Below are positions 12,474 through 24,587 of a stretch of 64,000 nt of DNA, piece by piece. The position numbers and the translations under genes were made by a program. Source of the DNA: a bacterium (GTDB taxonomy: Bacteria; UBA8248); assembly GCA_965199855.1 (NCBI GenBank), contig OZ241326.1, positions 2,240,001 to 2,304,000 on the forward strand, read 5' to 3'. Under the pieces are notes generated by a model. The model was given only the letters and a program-made list of their open reading frames with translations. It ran no database searches and was not told where the DNA came from. How positions within the stretch are numbered: the first letter of the stretch is position 1; every line of letters starts with the position of its first letter.

Positions 12474-12655
12474 CCCCGAAGCTCCCCGGAGAAGCGAGGC
12501 GCGCGCCGGAATCCCCGGCGAGGCCCGGCGCAATCCCGAATCGCCGGGACGCGGCGCCGCTCCGCCGGGCGCGTTGACACGCAATCGCCGCAGGGTGGAT
12601 CATGGCGGGCGTCGAGCGCAACCATCATCCCAAACCAGCCTGCGGGAGCCGCGAG

Positions 12656-13828
12656 ATGAGCCTGCAAACCGAAGCCGCGCTTCAGTTCGACCTGGACGAC
12701 ACGCAAAAGATGCTTCGCCGGACGGTGCGGGAGCTCTCCGAGCGCCACATCGCCCCGCGCGCCGCCGAAATCGACGAGAACGAGGAATACCCCGAAGACA
12801 TCTATCAGATGCAGAAGGAGCACGGCCTCCTCGGCATCTTCTTCCCCGAGGAATACGGCGGCGGCGGAATGGGCTTTCTGGGCGGCTGCGTCGCCATCGA
12901 GGAGATCGCGCGCTTCTGCTCGAACTCCCCGCTCTTCATCGTGCTCAACATGCTCTCGAGCCGCGTCATCGACCTGAGCGGCACGCCGGAGCAGAAGACG
13001 CATTATATGACGGGCCTCGCCAGGGGCGAACTTCGGGGCTCCTACGCCCTCACGGAGCCCCACGCGGGCTCCGACGCCGGGAACATCCGCACGCGCGCCG
13101 TCCGGGAGGGCGAGGAGTGGGTCATCAACGGGACGAAATGCTTCTGCACGGGACCCGACAAGGCGGACTTCATCACCGTCGCCGCCAAGACCGACCCCGG
13201 CGCGGGCGCGCGGGGCATCACCTACTACGTCGTCCCCACGGACGCGCCCGGCTTCAGCATCGACAAGCACGAGCGCAAGATGGGGATGCGCGGCATCTCG
13301 ACCTGCATGCTGCGCTTCGACAGCGTGGCCGTGCCCCTCGAGAACCAGATCGGCGAGCTGAACCAGGGCTTCAGAACCGCGATGATCGGCTTCAACCAGA
13401 TGCGGCCCGCCATCGGCGCGCGCGCGGTCGGCCTCGCCCAGGGGTGCCTCGACTACGCCGCGGGCTACGCGAAGGAGCGCGAGGCCTTCGGGAAGCCCAT
13501 CGCCCGCCACCAGGCCGTCCAGTTCATGCTCGCCGACATGTTCATGGACATCGAGGCGTCGCGCCTGCTCGTCTATCGCGCCGCCTCGATGGTGGACGCC
13601 GGACAAATCGGCAAGGAGAACGCCCGGTATTTCTCGACGGCCAAGACCTACGCGGCCGACATGGCGATGAAGTGCGCGATAGACGGCATCCAGGTGCTGG
13701 GCGGGGCGGGCTACATGAAGGATCACCCGCTCGAGCGCTTCATGCGCGACGCCAAGCAGATCCAGATCGTCGAGGGGACGAGCCAGATTCAGCGGATCAT
13801 CATCGCCCGCAACCTGCTCGACCTCTAG
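12656..13828 (+). CDS. Acyl-CoA dehydrogenase (copy 1)
   Basis: PEEYGGGG, ALTEPHAGSD, INGTKCF, KMGMRG, REAFGKPI..HQAVQF, QVLGG.GY, IVEGT. Confidence 0.95.
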   Translation: MSLQTEAALQFDLDDTQKMLRRTVRELSERHIAPRAAEIDENEEYPEDIYQMQKEHGLLGIFFPEEYGGGGMGFLGGCVAIEEIARFCSNSPLFIVLNMLSSRVIDLSGTPEQKTHYMTGLARGELRGSYALTEPHAGSDAGNIRTRAVREGEEWVINGTKCFCTGPDKADFITVAAKTDPGAGARGITYYVVPTDAPGFSIDKHERKMGMRGISTCMLRFDSVAVPLENQIGELNQGFRTAMIGFNQMRPAIGARAVGLAQGCLDYAAGYAKEREAFGKPIARHQAVQFMLADMFMDIEASRLLVYRAASMVDAGQIGKENARYFSTAKTYAADMAMKCAIDGIQVLGGAGYMKDHPLERFMRDAKQIQIVEGTSQIQRIIIARNLLDL

Positions 13829-13840
13829 GAGCGCGCGGAG

Positions 13841-15010
13841 GTGGGGCCGGGGGCGGAGCCGCCCGCCGCGTTCGGGCTGAGCCGGGCGCAGCGAGCGCTG
13901 GGAGAGAGGGTCTATGCGCTGAGCCGCCGCCGCGTCGCGCCCCGCGCCGCCGACATCGACGAAAGCGGGGAATACCCCGAGGATATTTTCCAGCTCCTGA
14001 AGTCCCGCGGCCTCCTCGGCCTCTACGTCCCCGAAGAATACGGCGGGGCGGGCCTCGGCGTCCTGGAGACGTGCGTCGCCATCGAGCAGATGGCGCGCTT
14101 CTGCTCGAACTCTCCCCTTTTCTTCTCCGTCCACCTGCTCGCCACCCGCGCCGTCGCCATAGGCGGAACCGGGGCGCAGAAGAGCGTCTGGCTCCGCGGC
14201 GTAGCCCGGGGCGAGCTGCGCCCCGCCTTCTCGCTCACCGAGCCGCACGCGGGCTCCGACGCCGCGAACATATCGGCGCGCGCGGCGCGGGAGGGGGACT
14301 CGTGGGTCATCAACGGCCAGAAGTGCTACTGCACCGGCGCGAGCGTCGCCGACTTCCTCACCGTGGCGGCGAAGACCGAGGCCGGGGCGGGGGCGCGCGG
14401 CGTCTCCTTCTTCATCGTTCCCAAGGGCGAATTCCGGGTGGGCCGCCGCGAGAGGAAGATGGGGATGCGGGGAATCCCCACCTGCGAGGTGTTTTTGGAG
14501 AACGCCCACGTCCCCCTCGAAAACATCATCGGCGATCGGGCGACGGGCTTCAGAACCGCCATGCTCGGCTTCAACCAGGCGCGGCCCGCCATCGGCGCGC
14601 GCGCGGTCGGCCTCGCCCAGGGGTGCCTCGACCACGCCGCGGGCTACGCCAAGGAGCGCGAGGCCTTCGGGAAGCCCATCGCCCGCCATCAGGCCGTCCA
14701 GTTCATGCTCGCCGACATGTTCATGGACGTCGAGGCGTCGCGCCTGCTCGTTTACCGCGCCGCCTCGATGGTGGATAATGGGCGCTATCAAAAGGAGGAC
14801 GCGCATTTCATCTGCGCCGCGAAGTGCTTCGCGTCCGACGCGGCCATGAAGGCGGCCGTGGACGCGGTTCAGACCCTGGGCGGGGCGGGCTATACGAGGG
14901 ATCACCCGCTCGAGCGGTTTATGAGAGACGCCAAGCAGCTGCAAATCATCGAGGGGACGAACCAGATTCAGCGCATGGCGATCGCCCGGAATCTGCTGGG
15001 CCTGAACTGA
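13841..15010 (+). CDS. Acyl-CoA dehydrogenase (copy 2)
   Basis: Same motifs (LTEPHAGSD, KMGMRG, IIEGTNQIQ); tandem paralog of copy 1. Confidence 0.95.
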   Translation: MGPGAEPPAAFGLSRAQRALGERVYALSRRRVAPRAADIDESGEYPEDIFQLLKSRGLLGLYVPEEYGGAGLGVLETCVAIEQMARFCSNSPLFFSVHLLATRAVAIGGTGAQKSVWLRGVARGELRPAFSLTEPHAGSDAANISARAAREGDSWVINGQKCYCTGASVADFLTVAAKTEAGAGARGVSFFIVPKGEFRVGRRERKMGMRGIPTCEVFLENAHVPLENIIGDRATGFRTAMLGFNQARPAIGARAVGLAQGCLDHAAGYAKEREAFGKPIARHQAVQFMLADMFMDVEASRLLVYRAASMVDNGRYQKEDAHFICAAKCFASDAAMKAAVDAVQTLGGAGYTRDHPLERFMRDAKQLQIIEGTNQIQRMAIARNLLGLN

Positions 15011-15040
15011 CGCCTCGCTTCCCGCCGCCGGAGGTTACGG

Positions 15041-15661
15041 ATGAGCCGGACCATTGAAATTCTCACGCCCACCTCGTTCGTCCGCGCGGGCGATCATCCC
15101 CTGGCGGCGCGGCCGGGAGAGCTCGGCGGACTCAGAATCGGCTTTTTCCACAACAACAAGCCGAACGCCGACGCCCTCCTGGAGCGCATCGAGGAGCTCC
15201 TCGCGCGGGAGGACGAAACCCTCCGCTTCGTCCGCTGGGGAAAGCCGAACCCGACGCTGCCGGAGGCGCGCCTCGGCGAGTTCATCAAGCAGGTGGACGC
15301 GGCCGTCTGCGCGGTGGGCGACTGAGGCAGCTGCACGTCGTGGAGTATCCACGACGCGGTGGAGATGGAGAAAGCGGGGATTCCGACGGCCACGTTCTGC
15401 TCCAGCGAATTCTCCGCCCTGGGCGCGAACGAGCGGGTCGCCCTGGGGATGCCGGGCCTTCCGATAGTCGTCGTGCCGCACCCCGTGGGGGGGATTCCGC
15501 CCGAACGGGCGCGCGCCCTGGGGGACGCGGCGCTGGACGAGGTTCGGCGCGTCCTCACGGAGGACGCGGAATCGCTGCGAAGGGAATACCGCGAGCGCGC
15601 CTACGCCCCGCCCCGCCGGACGGTGCGCCACAAGGCGCTTTTCGCCCGGGGGTCGGCGTGA
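15041..15661 (+). CDS. UGSC-family selenoprotein (Sec at TGA 15323-15325), 206 aa
   Basis: ORFs 15041-15325 and 15359-15661 are in the same frame and joined by a single TGA: VDAAVCAVGD-U-GSCTSWSIHDAVEMEKAGIPT. This gives a UxxC motif, with a SECIS-like hairpin downstream. Confidence 0.88.
15336..15356 (+). promoter_or_regulatory. Bacterial SECIS-like hairpin
   Basis: CGTCGTGGA-GTA-TCCACGACG, a perfect 9-bp stem with G in the loop, starting at the 11th nt after the UGA. Confidence 0.8.
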
Positions 15662-15707
15662 GACGCCGGACGGACGGGAGCGCGCGCGGCGCAAGCGGGA
15701 GCGCGGC

Positions 15708-16799
15708 ATGAGCGATCCCTCCTCCGAAGCGCCTCCAGAAGCGGCGTCCCTCCCGAGCGAGCGGGTGAAGGTTCGGGACGCGCCCGAGGCGCTCGCGCGT
15801 CTCCTCGAGGCGAGGGGATGGGGCGACGGCCTGCCCGTCGTTCCCCCCACGCCCGGGCGCGTCGCCCGCATGGTGGAGGGGGCGGGGCTGGCCGCTGGGG
15901 AGGAAATCGGCCGGATGCCGCCCCGCCAGGGAGTCGTCACGGTCGAGGCGCTCGCCGTCAACGCCGTGATGGCCGGATGCCTCCCGGCCTACATGCCCGT
16001 TCTCGTGGCGGCGGCGCGGGGGGCGCTCCAGCCGGAATTCTCGCTCCACGCGCTCCAGGCGACGACCCACCCGGTGGCGCCCCTGATCATCGTGAACGGC
16101 CCCGTCGCCGCGAGAATCGACATGAACGCGGCGTATGGATGCTTCGCCCCCGGAAACCGGGCGAACGCGACGATTGGCCGCGCGATGCGCCTGACGCTCC
16201 TGAACGTAGGCGGGGCGAGCCCGGGCGTTCTGGATCGCGCCACCCAGGGCTCGCCCGCGAAATACGCATTCTGCATCGCCGAGAACGAGGAGGAATCCCC
16301 CTGGGAGCCGCTGCACGTCGAGCGCGGCTTCGCGCCCGGGGAGAGCGCCGTCACGGTCGTGGGCTGCGAGGGGCCCCACAACGTCAACGATCACGTGAGC
16401 CACGCGGCGGAGGGCATTCTCGCCGCCGCCGCCGACACGATGTCCGTCATGGGCGGCAACAACTTCTATCTGAGGGGCGAGCCGCTCCTCGCGCTCGGCC
16501 CCGAGCACGCGGCGACGATAGCGGGGGACGGGCTGTCGAAGGCGGACGTGAAGCGAAGGATTTTCGAGCTCGCCCGAAAGCCCGCGCGCCAGCTCCGGCG
16601 CGGCGCCATGTGGGGGATGCAGACCTGGGGGGAGGAGATAGCGAGAAACGAGGGAGATGACGACTACGAGATTCCGCTTCTGGATCGGCCCGAAGACCTC
16701 ATCGTCATCGTGGCGGGCGGCGCCGGCAAGCACTCCTCCTACCTGCCGACGTTCGGCCCCACGCGCTCGGTGACCACCCGGGTCGATTCGCCGGCCTGA
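15708..16799 (+). CDS. Conserved protein of unknown function, partner of the UGSC protein
   Basis: Motifs GWGDGLPVVPPT, AVNAVMAGC, GNRANATIGRA, AENEEESPWEPLH, VAGG.GKHS. Strong GC3 coding bias. From recall, this family typically neighbours UGSC genes. Confidence 0.8.
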   Translation: MSDPSSEAPPEAASLPSERVKVRDAPEALARLLEARGWGDGLPVVPPTPGRVARMVEGAGLAAGEEIGRMPPRQGVVTVEALAVNAVMAGCLPAYMPVLVAAARGALQPEFSLHALQATTHPVAPLIIVNGPVAARIDMNAAYGCFAPGNRANATIGRAMRLTLLNVGGASPGVLDRATQGSPAKYAFCIAENEEESPWEPLHVERGFAPGESAVTVVGCEGPHNVNDHVSHAAEGILAAAADTMSVMGGNNFYLRGEPLLALGPEHAATIAGDGLSKADVKRRIFELARKPARQLRRGAMWGMQTWGEEIARNEGDDDYEIPLLDRPEDLIVIVAGGAGKHSSYLPTFGPTRSVTTRVDSPA

Positions 16800-16913
16800 G
16801 CGAAAGCGGGAAAACGAGGCTTCGTCCCCGCCGGGAGCGCCCCCCCTCTCGCCCGGCTTCACGGATTCCCCAAAATCCCGCTCCGCGCGCGGCCCGCGAA
16901 TTGCGTCTTCGCG

Positions 16914-16943
16914 TTGCCCGCGGCTTCGCCTCCGTGCTAGATT
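16914..16943 (+). promoter_or_regulatory. Possible promoter for the rid-yqeB-AAA-VWA-yqeC-xdhC unit
   Basis: TTGCCC-N18-TAGATT with an extended TG motif, in the 177-bp gap. Confidence 0.4.
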
Positions 16944-16976
16944 CCCGCTTCCGTAGAGCCTCAGAGGGAGAAAGCC

Positions 16977-17378
16977 ATGCCGAAGCAGCAGATCGACTCG
17001 GAGAAGGTGAGGCCGGTGGCCGCGTATTCCACGGGCTGGAAGGTGTCGAACGGGCATCTCGTCATGCTGGCGGGCCAGGTGGCGACCGACACGGAGGGCC
17101 GCACCGTCGGCGGAGACGACATCAAGGCCCAGGCGCGGCAGGTCTATGAGAACGTCAAGGCCGCGCTCGAGGCCGCCGGCGCCGGAATGGAGGACGTCAT
17201 CCGCCTCACCGTCTATCTCACGGATCGGGCGAATTTTCCGGGAAGCGCGGAGGTGCGGCAAGCCTACTTCAGCCCGCCCTATCCGGCGAGCACGCTCCTC
17301 ATCGTGAGCGGACTGGCGAACCCGGAATGGCTCATCGAAATCGACGCCGTCGCCTTCGTGGAGGACGGGACGCCGTGA
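16977..17378 (+). CDS. Rid (YjgF/YER057c/UK114) family protein
   Basis: AYS, LAGQV, QARQVYENVKAALEAAG, YPASTL, LIEIDAVA. Confidence 0.92.
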   Translation: MPKQQIDSEKVRPVAAYSTGWKVSNGHLVMLAGQVATDTEGRTVGGDDIKAQARQVYENVKAALEAAGAGMEDVIRLTVYLTDRANFPGSAEVRQAYFSPPYPASTLLIVSGLANPEWLIEIDAVAFVEDGTP

Positions 17379-18232
17379 GAGGCGGCAGGGCGGTTTCCGA
17401 GACGCTCGTTCTCGTGAAGGGGGGCGGCGACCTCGCCACCGGCGCGGCGCACCGCCTGCGCCGCTCGGGCTTTCCCGTGATGATGACGGAAATCGAGCGT
17501 CCGACCATGGTCCGCCGCGCCGTCTCCTTCGCCGAATGCCTCTACGCCGGCGAATGGCGGGTGGAGGGCGTGGCTTCCGCGAGGGCGGAGGGCGGCTCCC
17601 TGGAGGAGAAAATCGCCGGCGCGCGCGCGCTGATGGAGGCGGGCGCCGTTCCCGTGATGGTCGATCCGCGCGCCGAGGCGGTCGCCCGCGTCCGGCCCGC
17701 CGTCGTGATCGACGCGATTCTCGCCAAGCGAAACCTCGGCACCCGCATCGAGGACGCCGAGGTGGTCATCGGCCTGGGGCCCGGCTTCACGGCGGGGGTC
17801 GATTGCCACGCCGTCATCGAGACCGCCCGGGGGCACGACCTGGGGCGGGTGATACTCGAAGGGGCGGCGAAGCCGGACACGGGCGCGCCGGGCGCCATCG
17901 CGGGCTACGCCGCCGAGCGGCTGCTGCGCGCCCCGCGCGCCGGCGCGTTCGCCTCCGCCGCCCGCATCGGGGACGCGGTGCGGGCGGGACAGGCCGTCGC
18001 CCGGGTGGACGGGGAGGAGGTGACGGCCCGCATCGACGGCGTCCTGCGCGGCCTGCTCAGGGACGGCATCGAGGTGAGCGCGGGCTTCAAGGTGGGCGAC
18101 GTCGACCCCAGGGCCGAGCCTTCCCACTGCGTGACGATATCGGACAAGTCGCGCGCCGTCGGCGGCGGCGCGCTCGAGGCCGTCATGATGTTCCTGTTCG
18201 GCGTCTCCCCGGCCGCGGAGCGCGCGAATTGA
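17375..18232 (+). CDS. yqeB: Selenium-dependent molybdenum hydroxylase system protein, YqeB/EF2563 family
   Basis: VKGGGDLATGAAHRL, PTMVRRAVSF, DAILAKRNLGT, IGLGPGF, ETARGHDLGR, LRGLL.DG, KVGDVDPR, ISDKSRAVGGGALEA. GTGA overlap with the rid gene. Confidence 0.93.
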   Translation: MRGGRAVSETLVLVKGGGDLATGAAHRLRRSGFPVMMTEIERPTMVRRAVSFAECLYAGEWRVEGVASARAEGGSLEEKIAGARALMEAGAVPVMVDPRAEAVARVRPAVVIDAILAKRNLGTRIEDAEVVIGLGPGFTAGVDCHAVIETARGHDLGRVILEGAAKPDTGAPGAIAGYAAERLLRAPRAGAFASAARIGDAVRAGQAVARVDGEEVTARIDGVLRGLLRDGIEVSAGFKVGDVDPRAEPSHCVTISDKSRAVGGGALEAVMMFLFGVSPAAERAN

Positions 18233-19113
18233 GTCCCGACATTCTGGCGGAAACGGTGGAAAGCGGCGCCTACCGCATCGGGCGCAGCGAAATCCCGATC
18301 AACCAGGCGAACGGCAACGCCTTCGTCCCCCCCGCGCAGTTCTATCTGGCGGCGGGCGACGCGCTCGAGCGCATCGCGTGGGCGGTGAGCCAGAACCTCC
18401 CCGTCCTGCTCGTCGGAGAGACCGGCGTCGGCAAGACGCTCTCGGTGCGCTACCTCGCCCACATGACGAACAACGGCTTCAGGCGCGTGAACCTCAACGG
18501 CATGACCACGGTCGATGAATTCGTGGGCAAGCTGATGATCAACGAGCAGGGCACCTACTGGGTGAACGGCATCCTGATCGACGCGATGCAGTCGGGAGAC
18601 TGGCTGCTCATCGACGAGATCAACGCCTGCCTGCCCGAAATCGCCTTCTGCCTCCACAGCCTGCTCGACGACGACCGCATGATCGTCCTCTCGGAGTATG
18701 ACGGCCGCGTCGTCAAGCCCCATCCGGACTTCAGGCTCTTCGCCAGCATGAACCCCCACGAGGACAGGAGATACGGCGGCACGAAGCCCCTGAACGAGGC
18801 GCTTCTGGATCGCTTCCCCGTCACCGTGAGGATGGACTACCTGCCCTTCGAGGCGGAGGTCGAGGTCATCATGCGGCAGAGCGGGAACGGCGACGAGGAG
18901 CTCGTCCGGCGCATGGTGCGCGTGGGCCACGACGCGCGCGAGGCCATGAGGAACGAAAAGGTGTTCTGCACCTTCAGCACCCGGCGCCTGATTGACTGGG
19001 CGCGCATGGCGGCGCGGTTCGACCCCATGGAGGCCGCCGTCTCGACCATCTTCAGCAAGGTCAACTCGTTCGACGCCAAGGTGCTCGAGGACATCGTGGA
19101 CAACCACTTCTAG
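18229..19113 (+). CDS. MoxR-class AAA+ ATPase, CbbQ/NirQ/NorQ type
   Basis: TTG start overlapping the yqeB stop. Walker A GETGVGKT, Walker B LLIDEIN, FASMNP, ALLDRF and a CbbQ-like C-terminal STRRL. Confidence 0.92.
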   Translation: MSPDILAETVESGAYRIGRSEIPINQANGNAFVPPAQFYLAAGDALERIAWAVSQNLPVLLVGETGVGKTLSVRYLAHMTNNGFRRVNLNGMTTVDEFVGKLMINEQGTYWVNGILIDAMQSGDWLLIDEINACLPEIAFCLHSLLDDDRMIVLSEYDGRVVKPHPDFRLFASMNPHEDRRYGGTKPLNEALLDRFPVTVRMDYLPFEAEVEVIMRQSGNGDEELVRRMVRVGHDAREAMRNEKVFCTFSTRRLIDWARMAARFDPMEAAVSTIFSKVNSFDAKVLEDIVDNHF

Positions 19114-19128
19114 CCGGGAGACGCAGGC

Positions 19129-20898
19129 ATGGAGCGCCGACGCGCCCGCCTCGAGACCCTCGCGCAGGTGACGGCGCGCGACTACGGCCTCGCCCTGCTG
19201 TTCGGCTCCCGGACGGAGACCGGGGACGACGCCGTCCTCGTCGAGGACCCGGAGCGGACCCTGGCGCGCCTGGGCGGCGGCCTCGACGACGAGCGCGTCC
19301 TGCGATACCAGAAGGGCATGACGCTCATCGAGGTGGCCCGCAGGCTCCAGGGGACGCTTCGCTGGGCGGGCCGCGCGGCCCTCGCCAACCGGGAGACGCC
19401 GGGCCTTTTCCACCTCTGGCGCGCCCTCGAGGACGCCAGATGCGAGAACCGCCTCGCCGAGTCGCTGCCCGGCACGAGAAAGAATTTCCGCGCCTTCGTC
19501 CGTCCCGCGATCGAGGACGCCGAGCGAAGCCACGCGCGGGGGGAGCTCCCCCTGCTTCTCCAGATTCAATGGGGCATCTACCTCGCCGGCGTCGGCCAGA
19601 CGCCCGGCGCCGCCTCCTCAAGGCCCGGGGATTTGCCCTCGGCCTGGTTCGATTCCGTCATCGCCCAGATTCTTCAGAGGCTCGTCCCGATCATCGACCG
19701 CGCCTGCGCGGCCAAAGAGCCGAAGACCGCCTTCGACTGCGCGAACGAAATCTACGACGCCGTGCGGCGCTTCCTCACCGAGGAGCAGCTCGCGCAGATG
19801 CGCGAGAGCGAGGAGCTCTCGGAGCTTCCGGATGAAATTCTGGAGAAAATCGAGAACCAGAAACTCCAGGGGGAGGAGTCCGAGTCGCCGGAGGCGCTCC
19901 ACCCGGAGGCGCTCGACGAGGTGGACGCGGACGAGGGCGAGCAGGTCGAGCTCACGCCCGAGGAGCTCGCCGCCCTGGGCCGCTGGGCGTCTCCCTGGTT
20001 CGAGATGGAGGGCGGCGGGAAGGAAGTCCACCCGACGGCGGAGCATCCCGACGAGCGCACCATCGTCCTGCCCCCGGAGGGCAAGGCGGAGGAATACGCG
20101 GCGATCATGGACGGCGCGGGCAGCCACATCAAGGTGCTGGCGTGGAAGCTCACGCAGATCATTCAGGAGAGAGCCTACGCCCGCTTCAGCGGCTCGCACC
20201 GCTCCGGCAAGCTGAACGTCCCGAAGCTCTGGAAGCAGCGCCTGGGCAAATTTCATCTTTTTCACCGCAAGGAGGAGCCCGAGAAGCTCGACGTCTGCTT
20301 CACCCTCCTCGTGGACGAGAGCGGCAGCATGAACCGCGAATCGAAATACGTAGCCGCCAGGGAGGCGACCGTGTTCTTCGCGGAAGTCCTCGACCGGCTG
20401 GACGTGCCCTTCGAGGTGATCGGCTACTCCACCGAGAGCTCGGAGGCGGCCATGGCGGCCGCGCTCGGCCACATCCCCGCCTTCAAGTTCAGGCACATCC
20501 GGCACTCCCCCCTTCAGCACCGCATCTACAAGGGCTTCGAGGACGCCTTCCCCCAGGTCAAGAACCGTCTCGTCAACATTTATCCGCGCTTCAACAACTG
20601 GGACGAGGAGCATCTGCTGTTCGCCTACCGAAGGCTCAGCCAGCGGCCCGAGGAGGAGAAGATCATCATCATCACCTCGGACGGCCAGCCCAACGGCGAC
20701 GCGGCCCACCTCGTGAGCGCGGTCGGCCGCCTCCAGGCGCTCGGCGTGCGGATCATCGGCGTCGGCGTGGTGGACCCCTTCGTCGAGCAGATCTACCCGA
20801 ACCACATCGTGGTGCAGGACCTCTCCCAGCTCTCCACGGAGCTGGTGAACATTCTGCGGCGCGAGCTGCTCGGGGGGGCGGAGGGCCGCCCTTGGTAG
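19129..20898 (+). CDS. VWA-domain protein, CbbO/NorD/CobT-like
   Basis: N-terminal LEDARCE, acidic linker, SGKLN, MIDAS DESGS, ITSDGQPN. Confidence 0.88.
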   Translation: MERRRARLETLAQVTARDYGLALLFGSRTETGDDAVLVEDPERTLARLGGGLDDERVLRYQKGMTLIEVARRLQGTLRWAGRAALANRETPGLFHLWRALEDARCENRLAESLPGTRKNFRAFVRPAIEDAERSHARGELPLLLQIQWGIYLAGVGQTPGAASSRPGDLPSAWFDSVIAQILQRLVPIIDRACAAKEPKTAFDCANEIYDAVRRFLTEEQLAQMRESEELSELPDEILEKIENQKLQGEESESPEALHPEALDEVDADEGEQVELTPEELAALGRWASPWFEMEGGGKEVHPTAEHPDERTIVLPPEGKAEEYAAIMDGAGSHIKVLAWKLTQIIQERAYARFSGSHRSGKLNVPKLWKQRLGKFHLFHRKEEPEKLDVCFTLLVDESGSMNRESKYVAAREATVFFAEVLDRLDVPFEVIGYSTESSEAAMAAALGHIPAFKFRHIRHSPLQHRIYKGFEDAFPQVKNRLVNIYPRFNNWDEEHLLFAYRRLSQRPEEEKIIIITSDGQPNGDAAHLVSAVGRLQALGVRIIGVGVVDPFVEQIYPNHIVVQDLSQLSTELVNILRRELLGGAEGRPW

Positions 20899-21719
20899 CG
20901 GAAGGCGGCCTCGCGCGGATGATCGGCGCCCGAGCGGGGCGGATCGTCGCGGCGGTCGGGGCGGGGGGGAAAACGAGCCTGCTCACGGCGCTCGCCCGGG
21001 AGTTTCACGCCCGAAGCGGCGCGCCCGCCCTCCTCACGACGACCACCAGAATTTTCGCGCCCCTGCCGGAGGAGGGGATTCCCCTCGCCCTGGGCGACGC
21101 CGCCGCCCTCTCGAGGAGGCTGCGCCCCTACATGAGAGCCTGCGGCGTCTCCTGGCTCGCCCGCGGACGCGAGGGCCGCGCGCCGGTTCCGGGCCGGGAG
21201 GGCGAGCGCCGCATGAAGCTGCGCGGCTTCGCGCCCTCCGAAATCGAGGGATTGCGTCTCGCGGAGGGCCTCACCCTCATCGAGGCGGACGGGGCGAGGC
21301 GCCTGCCCGTCAAGGCGCCCGGCGCGCGGGAGCCCGTCCTGCCCGAAGGCGTGGACGCCGTGCTGGGCGTCGTGGGGCTGGACGCCCTGGGCGCGCCCCT
21401 GGACGAGGCCCATGCGTTCCGCCCGGAGCTGCTCTCGCGGATATGCCGCCTGGACGCCGGCGCGGAGATCACGGCGGAGGCGATCGGGGCGCTGTGCGCG
21501 CACCCCGAGGGGCTGTTTCGCAAGGCGGACGGCGGCGCGCGCAGGTGGATCGTCCTCAACAAGGCCGATTTGGAAGCCTCGCTGGAAAAACGAAGAAAGA
21601 TCGCCTATACTATCCGGGAAATGGCGGGAAAGCCCCATGGGCCGGCGGACGGGGTTCTCCTGACCTCCTGCCTGAAGAACAGGCCGGAAGTTTTGCTGCG
21701 AATCGGGCCGGACGCCTGA
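20892..21719 (+). CDS. yqeC: Selenium cofactor biosynthesis accessory protein YqeC
   Basis: VAAVGAGGKTSL, LTTTTRI, LIEADGARRLPVKAPG.REPVLP, VVGLDALG, HPEGLFR, LNKAD. Start is either TTG 20892 or ATG 20919. Confidence 0.9.
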   Translation: MVAEGGLARMIGARAGRIVAAVGAGGKTSLLTALAREFHARSGAPALLTTTTRIFAPLPEEGIPLALGDAAALSRRLRPYMRACGVSWLARGREGRAPVPGREGERRMKLRGFAPSEIEGLRLAEGLTLIEADGARRLPVKAPGAREPVLPEGVDAVLGVVGLDALGAPLDEAHAFRPELLSRICRLDAGAEITAEAIGALCAHPEGLFRKADGGARRWIVLNKADLEASLEKRRKIAYTIREMAGKPHGPADGVLLTSCLKNRPEVLLRIGPDA

Positions 21720-21749
21720 GAGGAGGCGGCCCGCCTGCGCGGAGGAGAG

Positions 21750-22895
21750 ATGAGCGAGGACGTTTTCAGGGAAATGGCGAGGATGAAGGAGAAGGGGCAG
21801 GCGGGCGCGCTCGCCACCGTCGTGGCCCGCAAGGGCTCCGCGCCCATGAGCGGCGACGCGAAGATGCTCGTGCGCGAGGACGGCAGCGCCGAGGGCACCG
21901 TCGGGGGCGGCTGCCTGGAGGCCGAGGTCTGGGAGACCGCGATGAGCGTCCTCGAAACGGGCGCGCCCGAGAAGCTCTCCTTCGACCTCACCCAGAAGGA
22001 GGCGGAGGACAGCGGCCACATCTGCGGCGGCGTGGTGGAGATACTGGTGGAGCCGCTCCGGGCGTTTCCCCGGGAGCTGCTCGATGAGATCAACCGCGTG
22101 AAAAACCGGGGCGGAAGTGCCGCGCTGGCGACCATCGTCCAGCCGGGGGCGCTCGACATCCCGAAGCCCGAGGCCGGGAAAATGCTCTTCAGGCGCGACG
22201 GCAGCTCCGTGGGGGAAATTCCGCGCTATTCGGCGGAAGTCTGGGCGGAGAGCGCGCAGGTGATTCGCCAGGGCAGCCCCACCCTCCTGCACTTCAGCCA
22301 GGGCGCCGCGCGCGGCGGAGGAAAGAAGCCCGCGCCCGGCGAGGCGACCGAAATTTTCGTGGAGCCCATCTCCGGCCAGCCGCTCGTCTATATCTTCGGC
22401 GGCGGGCACGTATCCTTCTGCGTCGCGCAGGCGGCCTGGCTCGCCGGCTTCCGGGTCGCCATCGTGGAGGACAGACCCTCCTTCGCCAACAAGGAGCGCT
22501 TCCCGATGGCCGAGGCGTTCCACGTGGGCGATTTCCCGGAAGTTTTCAGGGAAATTCCGGTGGACGAGGCGGACTACCTGGCCATCATCACCCGGGGCCA
22601 CGCGAACGACGAGGTCGTCCTCGAATGGGCGATGAAGACGAAGGCGCGCTACATCGGGATGATCGGCTCGAAGAGCAAGGTGCTGCTCACCTACCGCCAT
22701 CTTCAGGAGAAGGGCTTCGCGCGGAGCGAGCTCATCGAGCGCGTCCACGCGCCCATCGGCCTGGACATCGGCGCCGACACGCCGGGCGAGATCGGAATCG
22801 CCATCGCCGCCGAGTTCGTCCGCCATCGCCGCCGGGGCGAGGCGGAAAGCGAGGGCGCGGGCAGCAAGCGGGTGCGCCTGGGAAGAAAGGCGTAA
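21750..22895 (+). CDS. xdhC: XdhC/CoxF family molybdenum-cofactor chaperone
   Basis: ATVVARKGSAP, GTVGGGCLE, ICGG, FGGGHV, TRGH..D, YIGMIGS, APIGLDIGADTPGEI. Confidence 0.92.
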   Translation: MSEDVFREMARMKEKGQAGALATVVARKGSAPMSGDAKMLVREDGSAEGTVGGGCLEAEVWETAMSVLETGAPEKLSFDLTQKEAEDSGHICGGVVEILVEPLRAFPRELLDEINRVKNRGGSAALATIVQPGALDIPKPEAGKMLFRRDGSSVGEIPRYSAEVWAESAQVIRQGSPTLLHFSQGAARGGGKKPAPGEATEIFVEPISGQPLVYIFGGGHVSFCVAQAAWLAGFRVAIVEDRPSFANKERFPMAEAFHVGDFPEVFREIPVDEADYLAIITRGHANDEVVLEWAMKTKARYIGMIGSKSKVLLTYRHLQEKGFARSELIERVHAPIGLDIGADTPGEIGIAIAAEFVRHRRRGEAESEGAGSKRVRLGRKA

Positions 22896-22939
22896 AAGCC
22901 TCTCGCCTCCGGCCCCCGAGCGGGATTCGCCCGAACGCC

Positions 22940-23752
22940 ATGAGCCACCTGCGCGCGCTCGCCGCGGCGGCGACGGACTTCCTCATCCCCCCGAAATGCC
23001 TTTTGTGCGCGAGCGCCCTGGAAATCGGCGGCGCGCGGACGATATGCGCGCCCTGCGACGAGGCGCTCGATCGCTTCGAGCCGCCCTGGTGCCCCAGGTG
23101 CGGCGCGCCCTTCCCCTCCCACGCCGCCCTGTCGCACTCCCCCGCCCACCACTGCGCGGAGTGCGCGGAAAACGTCTTTCACTTCGACGGGGCGCGCGCC
23201 GTCGGCGCCTTCAAGGGCTCTCTCCGGGAGCTGGTCCACCTGTTCAAATACGGAGGCGTCACCAAGCTGGCGCACGAGTTCGCCCCCCGGCTCGCCGCGC
23301 TCGCCGCGGACGAGCTGGGCGTCGGGCGGGACGATCCGGACGTGATCGTAACCCACGTGCCGATAGCGTCCGCGCGCTGGCGGGAGCGGGGCTTCGATCA
23401 AACGCGCCTGCTCGCGCTCCGGACGGCGAAGAGCCTCGGAGCGCCGCACGCGGACTGTCTGGAGCGCGCGAAGGAGACCCGTCCGCAAACCGGGCTCTCC
23501 GCGAGCGAGCGGCGCCGCAACGTACGGGGCGCCTTCCGGGCGCGCCCGAAGGCGGCGCGGATGCTCGAAGGGAAGACGTGCATCCTCCTCGACGACGTCA
23601 TCACCACCGGCTTCACCGCCTCGGCCTGCGCCCGCGAGCTCAAGCGGGCGGGCGCCGCCGCCGTGCACGCGCTCACCATCTGCCGCTCGCGAGGGCCCGC
23701 GCCCCCGCCGCGCGCGGAGGGGGTCAACGAGAGGGCTACGCATAACCTGTAA
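22940..23752 (+). CDS. comF: ComF family protein (double zinc ribbon + PRTase domain)
   Basis: CLLC/CAPC/CPRCG/CAEC, FKYGG, ERGFDQ, RRRNVRGAF, LLDDVITTG.T. Confidence 0.9.
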   Translation: MSHLRALAAAATDFLIPPKCLLCASALEIGGARTICAPCDEALDRFEPPWCPRCGAPFPSHAALSHSPAHHCAECAENVFHFDGARAVGAFKGSLRELVHLFKYGGVTKLAHEFAPRLAALAADELGVGRDDPDVIVTHVPIASARWRERGFDQTRLLALRTAKSLGAPHADCLERAKETRPQTGLSASERRRNVRGAFRARPKAARMLEGKTCILLDDVITTGFTASACARELKRAGAAAVHALTICRSRGPAPPPRAEGVNERATHNL

Positions 23753-23780
23753 TTTTTCCCGCCCGTCAGGAGGAGCAAAA

Positions 23781-24587
23781 ATGCAGGATCGATACACGGG
23801 CGACGTAGGGGATTTCGGCAAATACGGACTGCTCCGCGCCATCACCCGGCCCGGGATTACGAAAAAAGACGGCCAGGAGACATTGAGCCTCGGCGTCGTG
23901 TGGTATCGCCATCCCGACGAGAAAGACACGAACGACGGCGAGCATATCGACTATCTCGGCCCTTCCGGGCGCGAGAATTTTCGGAAGTGCGATCCTGAAC
24001 TATATGATTGCCTGAGCAAGATCGTCAGATATGACTCCAAAACCAGGAAGGCAAAGGGTCGCAGGGCGATATCGAAGATCGAGAATAGCGAGATACTCGG
24101 TTCGCAAACTCGTTTTTTCGGCAGGCGATGTCCTTATGACGCGGATGCTCGTAAAAAATGGCGCCGAGAAGCGTTGAACGAAATGAAGGGATGCGATTTG
24201 GTATTCCTCGACCCGGACAACGGGCTCAGGTGCAACCAGAACCTTGACAGCGGAAAACACGCCTACCTTGAGGAAGTCTTGAGCTTTGTTCTTCAAGGCA
24301 GCGCAGTAATTTTCTATCATCATCCTGACAGGTGAAAAACGCATAATGAACAAATCAGAAAACTCGCTCAATATATTGCTCGCAAGTTGGATAAAAATCA
24401 CCGCGTATCCGCTTTCCGTTACCGCAGAGGGAACTCCCGGGCGTTTTTCATCATTTGGCCGCGGGATCGGCAGAAAGTATTCAAGCCCCGCATGAAGGCG
24501 ATTCGTGATGGCCTGTGGGGCCGGGAATGTCGCTTTGAACTCACGGCGCGTTCCATCTCCGGCAAAAGCAGGGGCAACCCGAGTTAG
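23781..24587 (+). pseudogene. Conserved hypothetical gene (MQDRYTGDVGDFGKYGLLR type) interrupted by an in-frame TGA at 24333-24335
   Basis: AT-richer islet with an AGGAG RBS and a LVFLDPDNGL motif. The frame continues past the TGA (KTHNEQIRK...FRYRRGNSRAFFII) to TAG 24587. Confidence 0.65.

Follow-up and report, generated by a model that had tools for sequence, protein, structure and literature searches.

Introduction

The route of labile selenium into molybdenum (Mo) hydroxylases has been called the least understood use of selenium (PMC11448449). The trait is marked by YqeB (TIGR03309), YqeC (TIGR03172) and YgfJ/MocA (Haft and Self 2008, PMC2276186; Johnstone and Self 2024, PMC11448449). In the portions of these two papers at hand, fusions of YqeB with XdhC are frequent (PMC2276186), and in C. 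difficile the role of YqeB is genetically supported and a yqeC mutant is without phenotype (PMC11448449). Excerpts of the literature on AAA+ motors describe two further systems of relevance. The Mo-S-Cu site of CO dehydrogenase is matured by CoxD (an AAA+ ATPase), CoxE (a VWA protein) and CoxF, and CoxD drives the ATP-dependent sulfuration of the Mo site in the folded enzyme (Pelzmann et al. 2014, PMC4240915). Additionally, MoxR-class AAA+/VWA pairs remodel folded targets for metal insertion (PMC9976466, PMC13036017). Here, a bacterial locus is described in which a MoxR-class AAA+ ATPase and a VWA protein are encoded between yqeB and yqeC, with genes for a selenoprotein of the UGSC family and its partner upstream. 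The locus lies within a 64,000-nucleotide stretch of DNA that was analysed as a whole and is called the window below.

The stretch that carries these genes is best divided into two units. Unit A (12602-16799) holds two acyl-CoA dehydrogenase (ACAD) genes, the UGSC gene and the partner gene, and unit B (16977-22895, perhaps extending to 23752) has the order rid-yqeB-AAA-VWA-yqeC-xdhC. The reading preferred here, to which a probability of roughly 0.65 is assigned, is that unit B would be a stand-alone maturation operon for Mo-hydroxylases, equipped with a MoxR-type remodelling motor that acts in the manner of CoxD/CoxE, and that unit A would be separate from it.

An AAA+/VWA pair between yqeB and yqeC

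The window (C1:2240001-2304000; G+C content 68-70%) belongs to a single-contig genome of 3.04 Mb that is rated 100% complete. An earlier note on this DNA had listed eight co-oriented genes at 15041-22895, and profile searches recovered all eight at those positions on the + strand. Six of them constitute unit B:

16977-17378, + strand: Rid/YjgF-family protein (PF01042, 95.8 bits)
17375-18232, + strand: YqeB (TIGR03309, 347.8 bits against a cut-off of 220)
18229-19113, + strand: MoxR-class AAA+ ATPase with a TTG start (AAA_5, 98.6 bits; CbbQ_C, 37.6 bits)
19129-20898, + strand: CobT-like VWA-domain protein of 589 aa (CobT_C, 63.5 bits; VWA also listed)
20892 (TTG) or 20919 (ATG) to 21719, + strand: YqeC (TIGR03172, 164.9 bits against a cut-off of 73)
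21750-22895, + strand: XdhC-family chaperone for insertion of the molybdenum cofactor (XdhC_CoxI, 90.8 bits; XdhC_C, 127 bits)

Three stop/start overlaps had also been proposed. Those at rid/yqeB (GTGA, 17375-17378) and yqeB/AAA (TTGA, 18229-18232) are present, and the one at VWA/yqeC is uncertain: a TTG start at 20892 would overlap the VWA stop codon (20896-20898), and an ATG at 20919, with GGAAGG 12 nt before it, is no less likely as the start. The AAA+ and VWA genes are separated by 15 nt. YqeB is encoded by a single-copy gene (one tblastn match genome-wide), and YqeC is a P-loop protein with a GAGGKTS motif (read by eye). The XdhC protein scores 303.8 bits, below the cut-off of 350, against NF045664, the equivalog for an XdhC-related aldehyde oxidoreductase maturation factor.

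The ATPase has an AAA_5 core and a CbbQ_C lid and is adjacent to a VWA gene, which places it in the MoxR class (the CbbQ/NorQ/CobS group). Its Walker A (GETGVGKT) and Walker B (LLIDE) motifs and the MIDAS-type DESGS motif of the VWA protein were read by eye and not scored. Besides midasin, the closest solved relatives of the ATPase in the PDB are CobS (98.5 bits), CbbQ (81.9 bits) and NorQ (77.5 bits), and the closest solved relative of the VWA protein is CobT (43-45 bits). The VWA protein is presumed to be the adaptor of the ATPase. Identification of the pair as CoxD/CoxE itself was rejected: only CobT_C and VWA are listed for the VWA protein, without VWA_CoxE (PF05762), and a CoxE-type gene is present elsewhere. 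This gene, a classical CoxE-type VWA gene at C1:1997360-1997986 (207 bits), is the only PF05762 match of the genome; it adjoins genes for FAD-binding and 2Fe-2S subunits (C1:1994307-1997986), and no MoCoBD_1 match was reported there.

The gene order is conserved in the phylum, which comprises 51 species genomes in the taxonomy used. A total of 38 same-phylum loci were found with the VWA protein. In all 33 that have upstream DNA, yqeB-AAA precedes VWA, and in all 33 with enough downstream DNA it is followed by yqeC-xdhC; in one more, yqeC is at the contig end. Spacing inside this core is almost constant, and the junction between rid and the UGSC partner gene upstream ranges from ~90 bp to ~1.4 kb. 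The first operon gene is variable: of the 33 related loci with upstream DNA, 24 have rid and 9 lack it. VWA and yqeB are inherited together: YqeB was found in 49 and VWA in 48 of the 51 genomes, two small genomes have lost both, and the third VWA-less genome is 67% complete. Thus, the idea that the yqeB/yqeC/xdhC set has been expanded by an AAA+/VWA pair holds across the phylum, and the synteny is not peculiar to this genome.

As had been noted, the window contains no selD, selAB or hydroxylase gene, and such genes were found elsewhere in the genome. The machinery for selenocysteine (Sec) is represented by selA (548 bits), selB (372 bits), selD (344 bits) and tRNA-Sec, and ten MoCoBD_1 matches correspond to ten Mo-hydroxylase large subunits. 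In a genome-wide family search, the xdhC gene at 21750-22895 was the only one. The genome therefore holds both the Sec trait and marker genes of the labile-selenium cofactor trait, and it has no XdhC-type maturation set besides the operon in the window. A MocA/YgfJ-like gene is also present, with a score just below the cut-off. SelD, too, is a selenoprotein: its gene (C1:2985603-2986568) contains a single in-frame TGA, as do the selD genes of all five Chloroflexota genomes examined. A second YqeC (130.5 bits against the cut-off of 73) is encoded at C1:668667-669344 on the - strand, far from yqeB; its neighbours encode an M20 peptidase and an alcohol dehydrogenase of the iron type, with another Mo-hydroxylase large subunit ~5 kb away.

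The same pair beside hydroxylase genes in Chloroflexota

At 18 Chloroflexota loci, the same two proteins are encoded, AAA at 63-68% and VWA at 34-37% identity, with no adjacent yqeB or yqeC. The AAA+/VWA family also includes a cluster of 148 members in which Chloroflexota dominate. In all 14 of these that have upstream DNA, genes for FAD, 2Fe-2S and split Mo-binding subunits stand directly before AAA, and many of the AAA/VWA loci have an XdhC gene 6-8 kb further on. Against the PDB, the first half of the split Mo subunit matches NdhL of the Eubacterium barkeri nicotinate dehydrogenase (3hrd_A) over its whole length with 233 bits, the next match having 164. We take this enzyme to be a structurally characterised Mo=Se hydroxylase with the same subunit split. 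No orthologue of the Anaerolineae hydroxylase was found in the genome of the window, the best identity being 34-40%. Given the hydroxylase genes before AAA at these loci, the AAA+/VWA family is tied to Mo-hydroxylases in two phyla.

Co-occurrence with selenium markers is less informative. Among the AAA/VWA-bearing Chloroflexota genomes, YqeB is above the cut-off in four of five and SelD is present in all five. Across 121 sampled Anaerolineae genomes, however, YqeB occurs in 72, so that four of five is near background, and the VWA family occurs in the query genome only; a genome-level association of VWA with YqeB in Anaerolineae was therefore rejected as evidence. The markers of the selenium cofactor look common in this class. 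At four Chloroflexota loci (L169-L172, in genomes G001, G005, G004 and G002, respectively), yqeB-yqeC directly follows a Mo-hydroxylase operon that starts with xdhC, and the YqeC protein of G001 carries a fused MocA/YgfJ-like cytidylyltransferase domain.

The UGSC selenoprotein and its partner

Unit A consists of the following features:

12602-13828 and 13841-15010, + strand: two ACAD genes (Pfam Acyl-CoA_dh_N/M/1)
15041-15661, + strand: UGSC-family selenoprotein of 206 aa with Sec95 (PF24696, 161.8 bits; NF041046, 136.4 bits)
15337-15357, + strand: candidate bacterial selenocysteine insertion sequence (SECIS) hairpin with an 8-bp stem and a 5-nt loop (from sequence and fold)
15708-16799, + strand: partner of UGSC, 363 aa, without a Pfam or NCBIfam match

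The UGSC open reading frame (ORF) reads through one in-frame TGA (15323-15325) in the motif D-U-G-S-C, and both profile scores exceed the curated cut-offs (25 bits for PF24696 and 125 bits for NF041046). The hairpin, CGUCGUGG-AGUAU-CCACGACG, begins 12 nt past the UGA. The 66-nt fold is not better than shuffles (z -0.56), and an Rfam search of 14900-23900 gave no match at E <= 1; the hairpin is consistent with a SECIS element at most. The partner is recognised by the motifs DGLPVVPPT, VMAGC and RANATIGRA.

Neither gene is confined to the window. The genome has four UGSC genes, with one TGA each, and nine partner paralogues of 42-48% identity, the positions of which rest on tblastn, as gene calling based on G+C content at third codon positions overlooked some genes or put them on the wrong strand. 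A partner gene is directly beside three of the UGSC genes, and the fourth has four partner genes in a tandem array at a distance of 5 kb. This array, at C1:383076-387204 (L027:7076-11204), has its four partner-family paralogues on the same strand; past it come a C-5 DNA methylase gene, an opposite-strand gene for a Mo-hydroxylase large subunit and the lone UGSC gene, which is divergent from the hydroxylase gene. In a metagenome locus (L106), three tandem partners adjoin a hydroxylase 78% identical to that of L027.

A scan of metagenome contigs by partner alignment yielded 80 loci, and a same-strand UGSC gene is directly beside the partner in 58 of these. The motif is encoded with TGA in 53 of 54 near-full-length metagenome UGSC matches and with Cys in one. 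Furthermore, UGSC and partner matches occur in one frame in four Anaerolineae genomes, and one such fusion, when translated, gives a single protein of 548 aa with one TGA. A GOS read filed under the UGSC family by Zhang and Gladyshev (2008, supplementary file 3) runs on into GWTDGLPVVPPT, a hallmark motif of the partner. The 'UGSC/Unknown_1 fusion' of that study therefore corresponds to the UGSC-partner pair, and the partner is the 'Unknown_1' domain (PMC2398784). Together, adjacency and fusion make a strong case that UGSC and its partner act together. The module would comprise a Sec-x-x-Cys redox subunit and a 363-aa subunit, present in many copies and many genomic contexts.

The structure model of the partner is confident (pLDDT 92.8). 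A Foldseek search of the model against the PDB returned nothing at E <= 0.001 (best 7xky_A, E 2.7e-3, TM 0.29), and the best match in a wide VIA-align search (Z 5.4 over 82 residues) was under the noise level of the method itself. For UGSC, a sequence search of the PDB gave only NifN at E 0.1, and no GRDB family was among its Pfam matches at E <= 10; a weak NCBIfam match to GrdB (21 bits) is a lead only. In a census of the neighbours of the UGSC pair, which covered a selection of 136 ORFs at 24 metagenome loci (the first ones among the 37 of at least 9 kb), no family occurred in more than five ORFs.

Proposed role and alternative explanations

In the maturation system proposed for unit B, XdhC would hold and deliver the molybdenum cofactor, and YqeB and YqeC, with selenophosphate from SelD, would supply the labile selenium ligand. 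The VWA adaptor may dock on an apo-hydroxylase or on XdhC. Powered by ATP, the hexameric AAA+ ATPase would prise apart either the folded apo-hydroxylase or the complex of XdhC and cofactor and so make the buried Mo site accessible to loading or modification. Either the cofactor held by XdhC would then enter, or a terminal ligand would be swapped for selenium by way of SelD, YqeB and YqeC. This action is likened to that of CoxD on CO dehydrogenase and of NorQ/NorD on NO reductase; from these analogies we infer the biochemical steps and the client enzymes, and the motor may or may not serve selenium insertion in particular. Since there is one xdhC for ten hydroxylases, the operon probably serves several clients.

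Several observations weigh against this two-unit reading. Hydroxylase genes are absent within 10 kb of the operon at every locus of the phylum, which service to several clients would explain. A gene order shared by the 51 related genomes of a single phylum provides little evidence of function, and the genome carries the separate classical CoxE-type VWA gene. Of the 120 Anaerolineae genomes sampled besides the query genome, 71 have YqeB and none has the VWA family, and in the four Chloroflexota genomes examined yqeB-yqeC stands behind a hydroxylase operon other than the AAA/VWA one. As YqeB is common without VWA and yqeB-yqeC follows a different hydroxylase operon, the motor is an optional addition to the YqeB system, built into the operon in this phylum. 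With respect to the separation of the two units, the 177-bp gap between them has no detected promoter or terminator, so read-through from unit A to unit B is possible in this genome. Moreover, two further UGSC/partner loci in the genome abut Mo-hydroxylase genes (divergent at L027 and convergent at L030), which exceeds a rough chance expectation of ~0.03 per locus, and a Mo-hydroxylase large subunit abuts 3 of the 80 metagenome partner loci.

A narrower alternative is that the AAA+/VWA pair is a motor specific to selenium insertion, which would open the assembled hydroxylase for ligand exchange by YqeB/YqeC and would have no part in the maturation of selenium-independent enzymes. Such a motor would fit the position of the pair between yqeB and yqeC, its 4-nt overlap with yqeB and its inheritance together with yqeB in the phylum. 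It would also fit Anaerolineae, where the pair follows a split hydroxylase with the Mo=Se nicotinate dehydrogenase as its closest solved relative. The counts of YqeB and SelD in AAA/VWA-bearing Chloroflexota genomes (four and five of five) point the same way. CoxD offers an analogy, as it is required for the Mo site to be sulfurated (PMC4240915). On the other hand, YqeB is common in Anaerolineae without the pair, which leaves those counts for YqeB near background, and yqeB-yqeC there accompanies another hydroxylase operon. Additionally, selenium-dependent and other hydroxylases cannot be distinguished by sequence. A selenium-specific motor is thus a tentative and rather unlikely explanation. 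Carried further, the pair would be the missing ATP-driven machine of the third selenium trait, which opens folded hydroxylases of the xanthine-oxidase family for YqeB/YqeC to put in the labile Mo=Se ligand, much as CoxD does for sulfur in CO dehydrogenase, and the split, Ndh-like enzyme of Anaerolineae would then be an unrecognised selenium-dependent hydroxylase; this extension is speculative to a similar degree.

A second alternative concerns the boundary between the two units. The earlier note had suggested that the locus may connect the two selenium traits, and in this case the UGSC pair would work with YqeB/YqeC, for instance as a selenium carrier or as a reductant of the labile-selenium cofactor. 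The UxxC motif suits redox or selenium chemistry, and the position of the pair is partly conserved: among the 38 same-phylum loci, 31 can be judged upstream, and in 19 of these the co-oriented pair stands between ACAD and (rid-)yqeB, including sub-groups at 66-72% and at least 75% VWA identity. The 177-bp gap between partner and rid (16800-16976) is real, and the promoter that had been proposed within it (16914-16943), which matches 8 of 12 consensus positions as read by eye, was not recovered, since a scan of the gap detected neither a promoter nor a terminator. The two other UGSC/partner loci that adjoin Mo-hydroxylase genes in this genome, and the three in metagenomes, would likewise favour a link.

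The remaining comparisons speak against it. The pair is missing in the other 12 of the 31 judgeable loci, mostly with ACAD directly before rid or yqeB, and ACAD precedes the locus in relatives with and without the pair. Of the 19 relatives with the pair, 11 have an opposite-strand TetR-family gene, absent here, between partner and rid; therefore, pair and operon cannot be one transcript in those loci. Counted over all close relatives, such an insertion was noted at 12 loci (L040:6768-7358, - strand, and 11 more). None of the 80 metagenome partner loci has a match to YqeB, YqeC, AAA, VWA, Rid or ComF, with the limit that only 37 of them are at least 9 kb long and short contigs restrict what their absence can mean; an XdhC-like gene was found 8 kb off in one locus and ACAD in four. 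Across the phylum, UGSC is present in 43 of 51 genomes at two to nine copies each; those without it are the seven members of one family, all of which lack it, and a single other genome. Six of these eight UGSC-less genomes, with a completeness of 93-100%, have YqeB and VWA, that is, the operon without UGSC anywhere. The expected correlation of UGSC with yqeB across genomes was not borne out either: in the 121 Anaerolineae genomes, UGSC is present in nine and YqeB in 72, and only three of the nine UGSC carriers have YqeB, so that there is no positive association. The pair is thus multi-copy, self-contained, fused elsewhere, surrounded by heterogeneous neighbours and separable from the operon, and a coupling of the two traits through it is improbable. 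The suggested link is not supported, and the evidence agrees better with the caveat that had accompanied it, a possibly incidental adjacency: the UGSC pair is a separate module beside the operon.

The pair is assigned instead to the unit upstream. Three of the four UGSC copies in this genome are co-oriented with and near acyl-CoA genes, which are ACAD in the window, CoA-transferase III at L026, and enoyl-CoA hydratases and ACAD at L027, and the gap between ACAD and UGSC in the window is 30 bp. Therefore, the ACAD genes are probable operon partners of the UGSC pair. A general acyl-CoA link of the pair was rejected, ACAD being found in just 4 of the 80 metagenome partner loci.

Finally, that the pair is the true CobS/CobT motor of an aerobic cobaltochelatase (vitamin B12 synthesis), present in the operon by chance, can be dismissed almost entirely: its best named matches are indeed CobS and CobT, but the equivalog scores are far below the cut-offs (TIGR01650, 85.2 against 558.55 bits; TIGR01651, 51.4 against 759.05 bits), the complete genome has no CobN-Mg_chel match, and the position of the pair is conserved inside yqeB...yqeC and, in another phylum, by hydroxylase genes.

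Downstream genes

The operon may extend by one gene beyond xdhC:

22940-23752, + strand: ComF/GntX-like phosphoribosyltransferase with a double zinc ribbon (DZR_2, Pribosyltran)

A ComF/GntX-like gene follows xdhC here and in most related loci, and it perhaps belongs to the operon. Just past it, a locally lower-GC stretch carries an ORF of 184 aa (23781-24335) without a Pfam match.

Significance

To our knowledge, no mechanism has been described for YqeB or YqeC. Under the preferred reading of unit B as a maturation operon with its own remodelling motor, a class of enzyme-remodelling ATPase and adaptor conserved inside the yqeB-yqeC-xdhC operon across a whole phylum offers a concrete and testable component, and the same pair beside a nicotinate-dehydrogenase-like enzyme in another phylum supplies a candidate client for reconstitution. 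A tempting connection of the Sec trait with the cofactor trait is removed as unsupported. Treating UGSC and its 'Unknown_1' partner as one unit narrows the search for the function of a selenoprotein that is very abundant in the environment.

Comparison with known systems

The clustering of YqeB, YqeC and XdhC, the UGSC family and the principle of CoxD/CoxE are already known. To all appearances, neither the AAA+/VWA subfamily nor its location between yqeB and yqeC has been described before. The pair is not mentioned in the available parts of PMC11448449 (no occurrence of 'AAA' or 'von Willebrand') or of PMC2276186, and the literature found does not link YqeB or selenium-dependent molybdenum with CobT, VWA, MoxR or CbbQ, its coverage being partial and not proof of absence.

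In unit A, the Sec residue within the UGSC motif is shared with the described family of UGSC-containing selenoproteins (PMC2398784; PF24696, NF041046). Unlike the published UGSC/Unknown_1 fusion, UGSC and partner are encoded here by separate adjacent genes, and the partner is without a PDB fold match.

Unit B resembles the labile-selenium trait in that YqeB and YqeC are above the curated cut-offs, SelD is encoded in the genome and an XdhC-type chaperone is clustered with them. It differs in the AAA+/VWA pair between yqeB and yqeC and in that the cluster is without hydroxylase, selD and mocA genes. By sequence, CobS/CobT, NorQ/NorD and CbbQ/CbbO are the closest solved relatives of the pair and have the same two-gene AAA+/VWA layout. 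A cobaltochelatase is set apart by the scores far below the CobS/CobT cut-offs, by the lack of CobN and by the context of Mo-hydroxylase maturation. In contrast to CoxD/CoxE, the pair here is of the AAA_5/CbbQ_C and CobT_C types and not VWA_CoxE, and its ligand would be selenium or the cofactor itself instead of sulfur and copper. With CoxD/CoxE, which act on a buried site after folding, it shares the combination of a MoxR-class ATPase and a VWA protein, together with accessory genes of a Mo enzyme of the xanthine-oxidase family.

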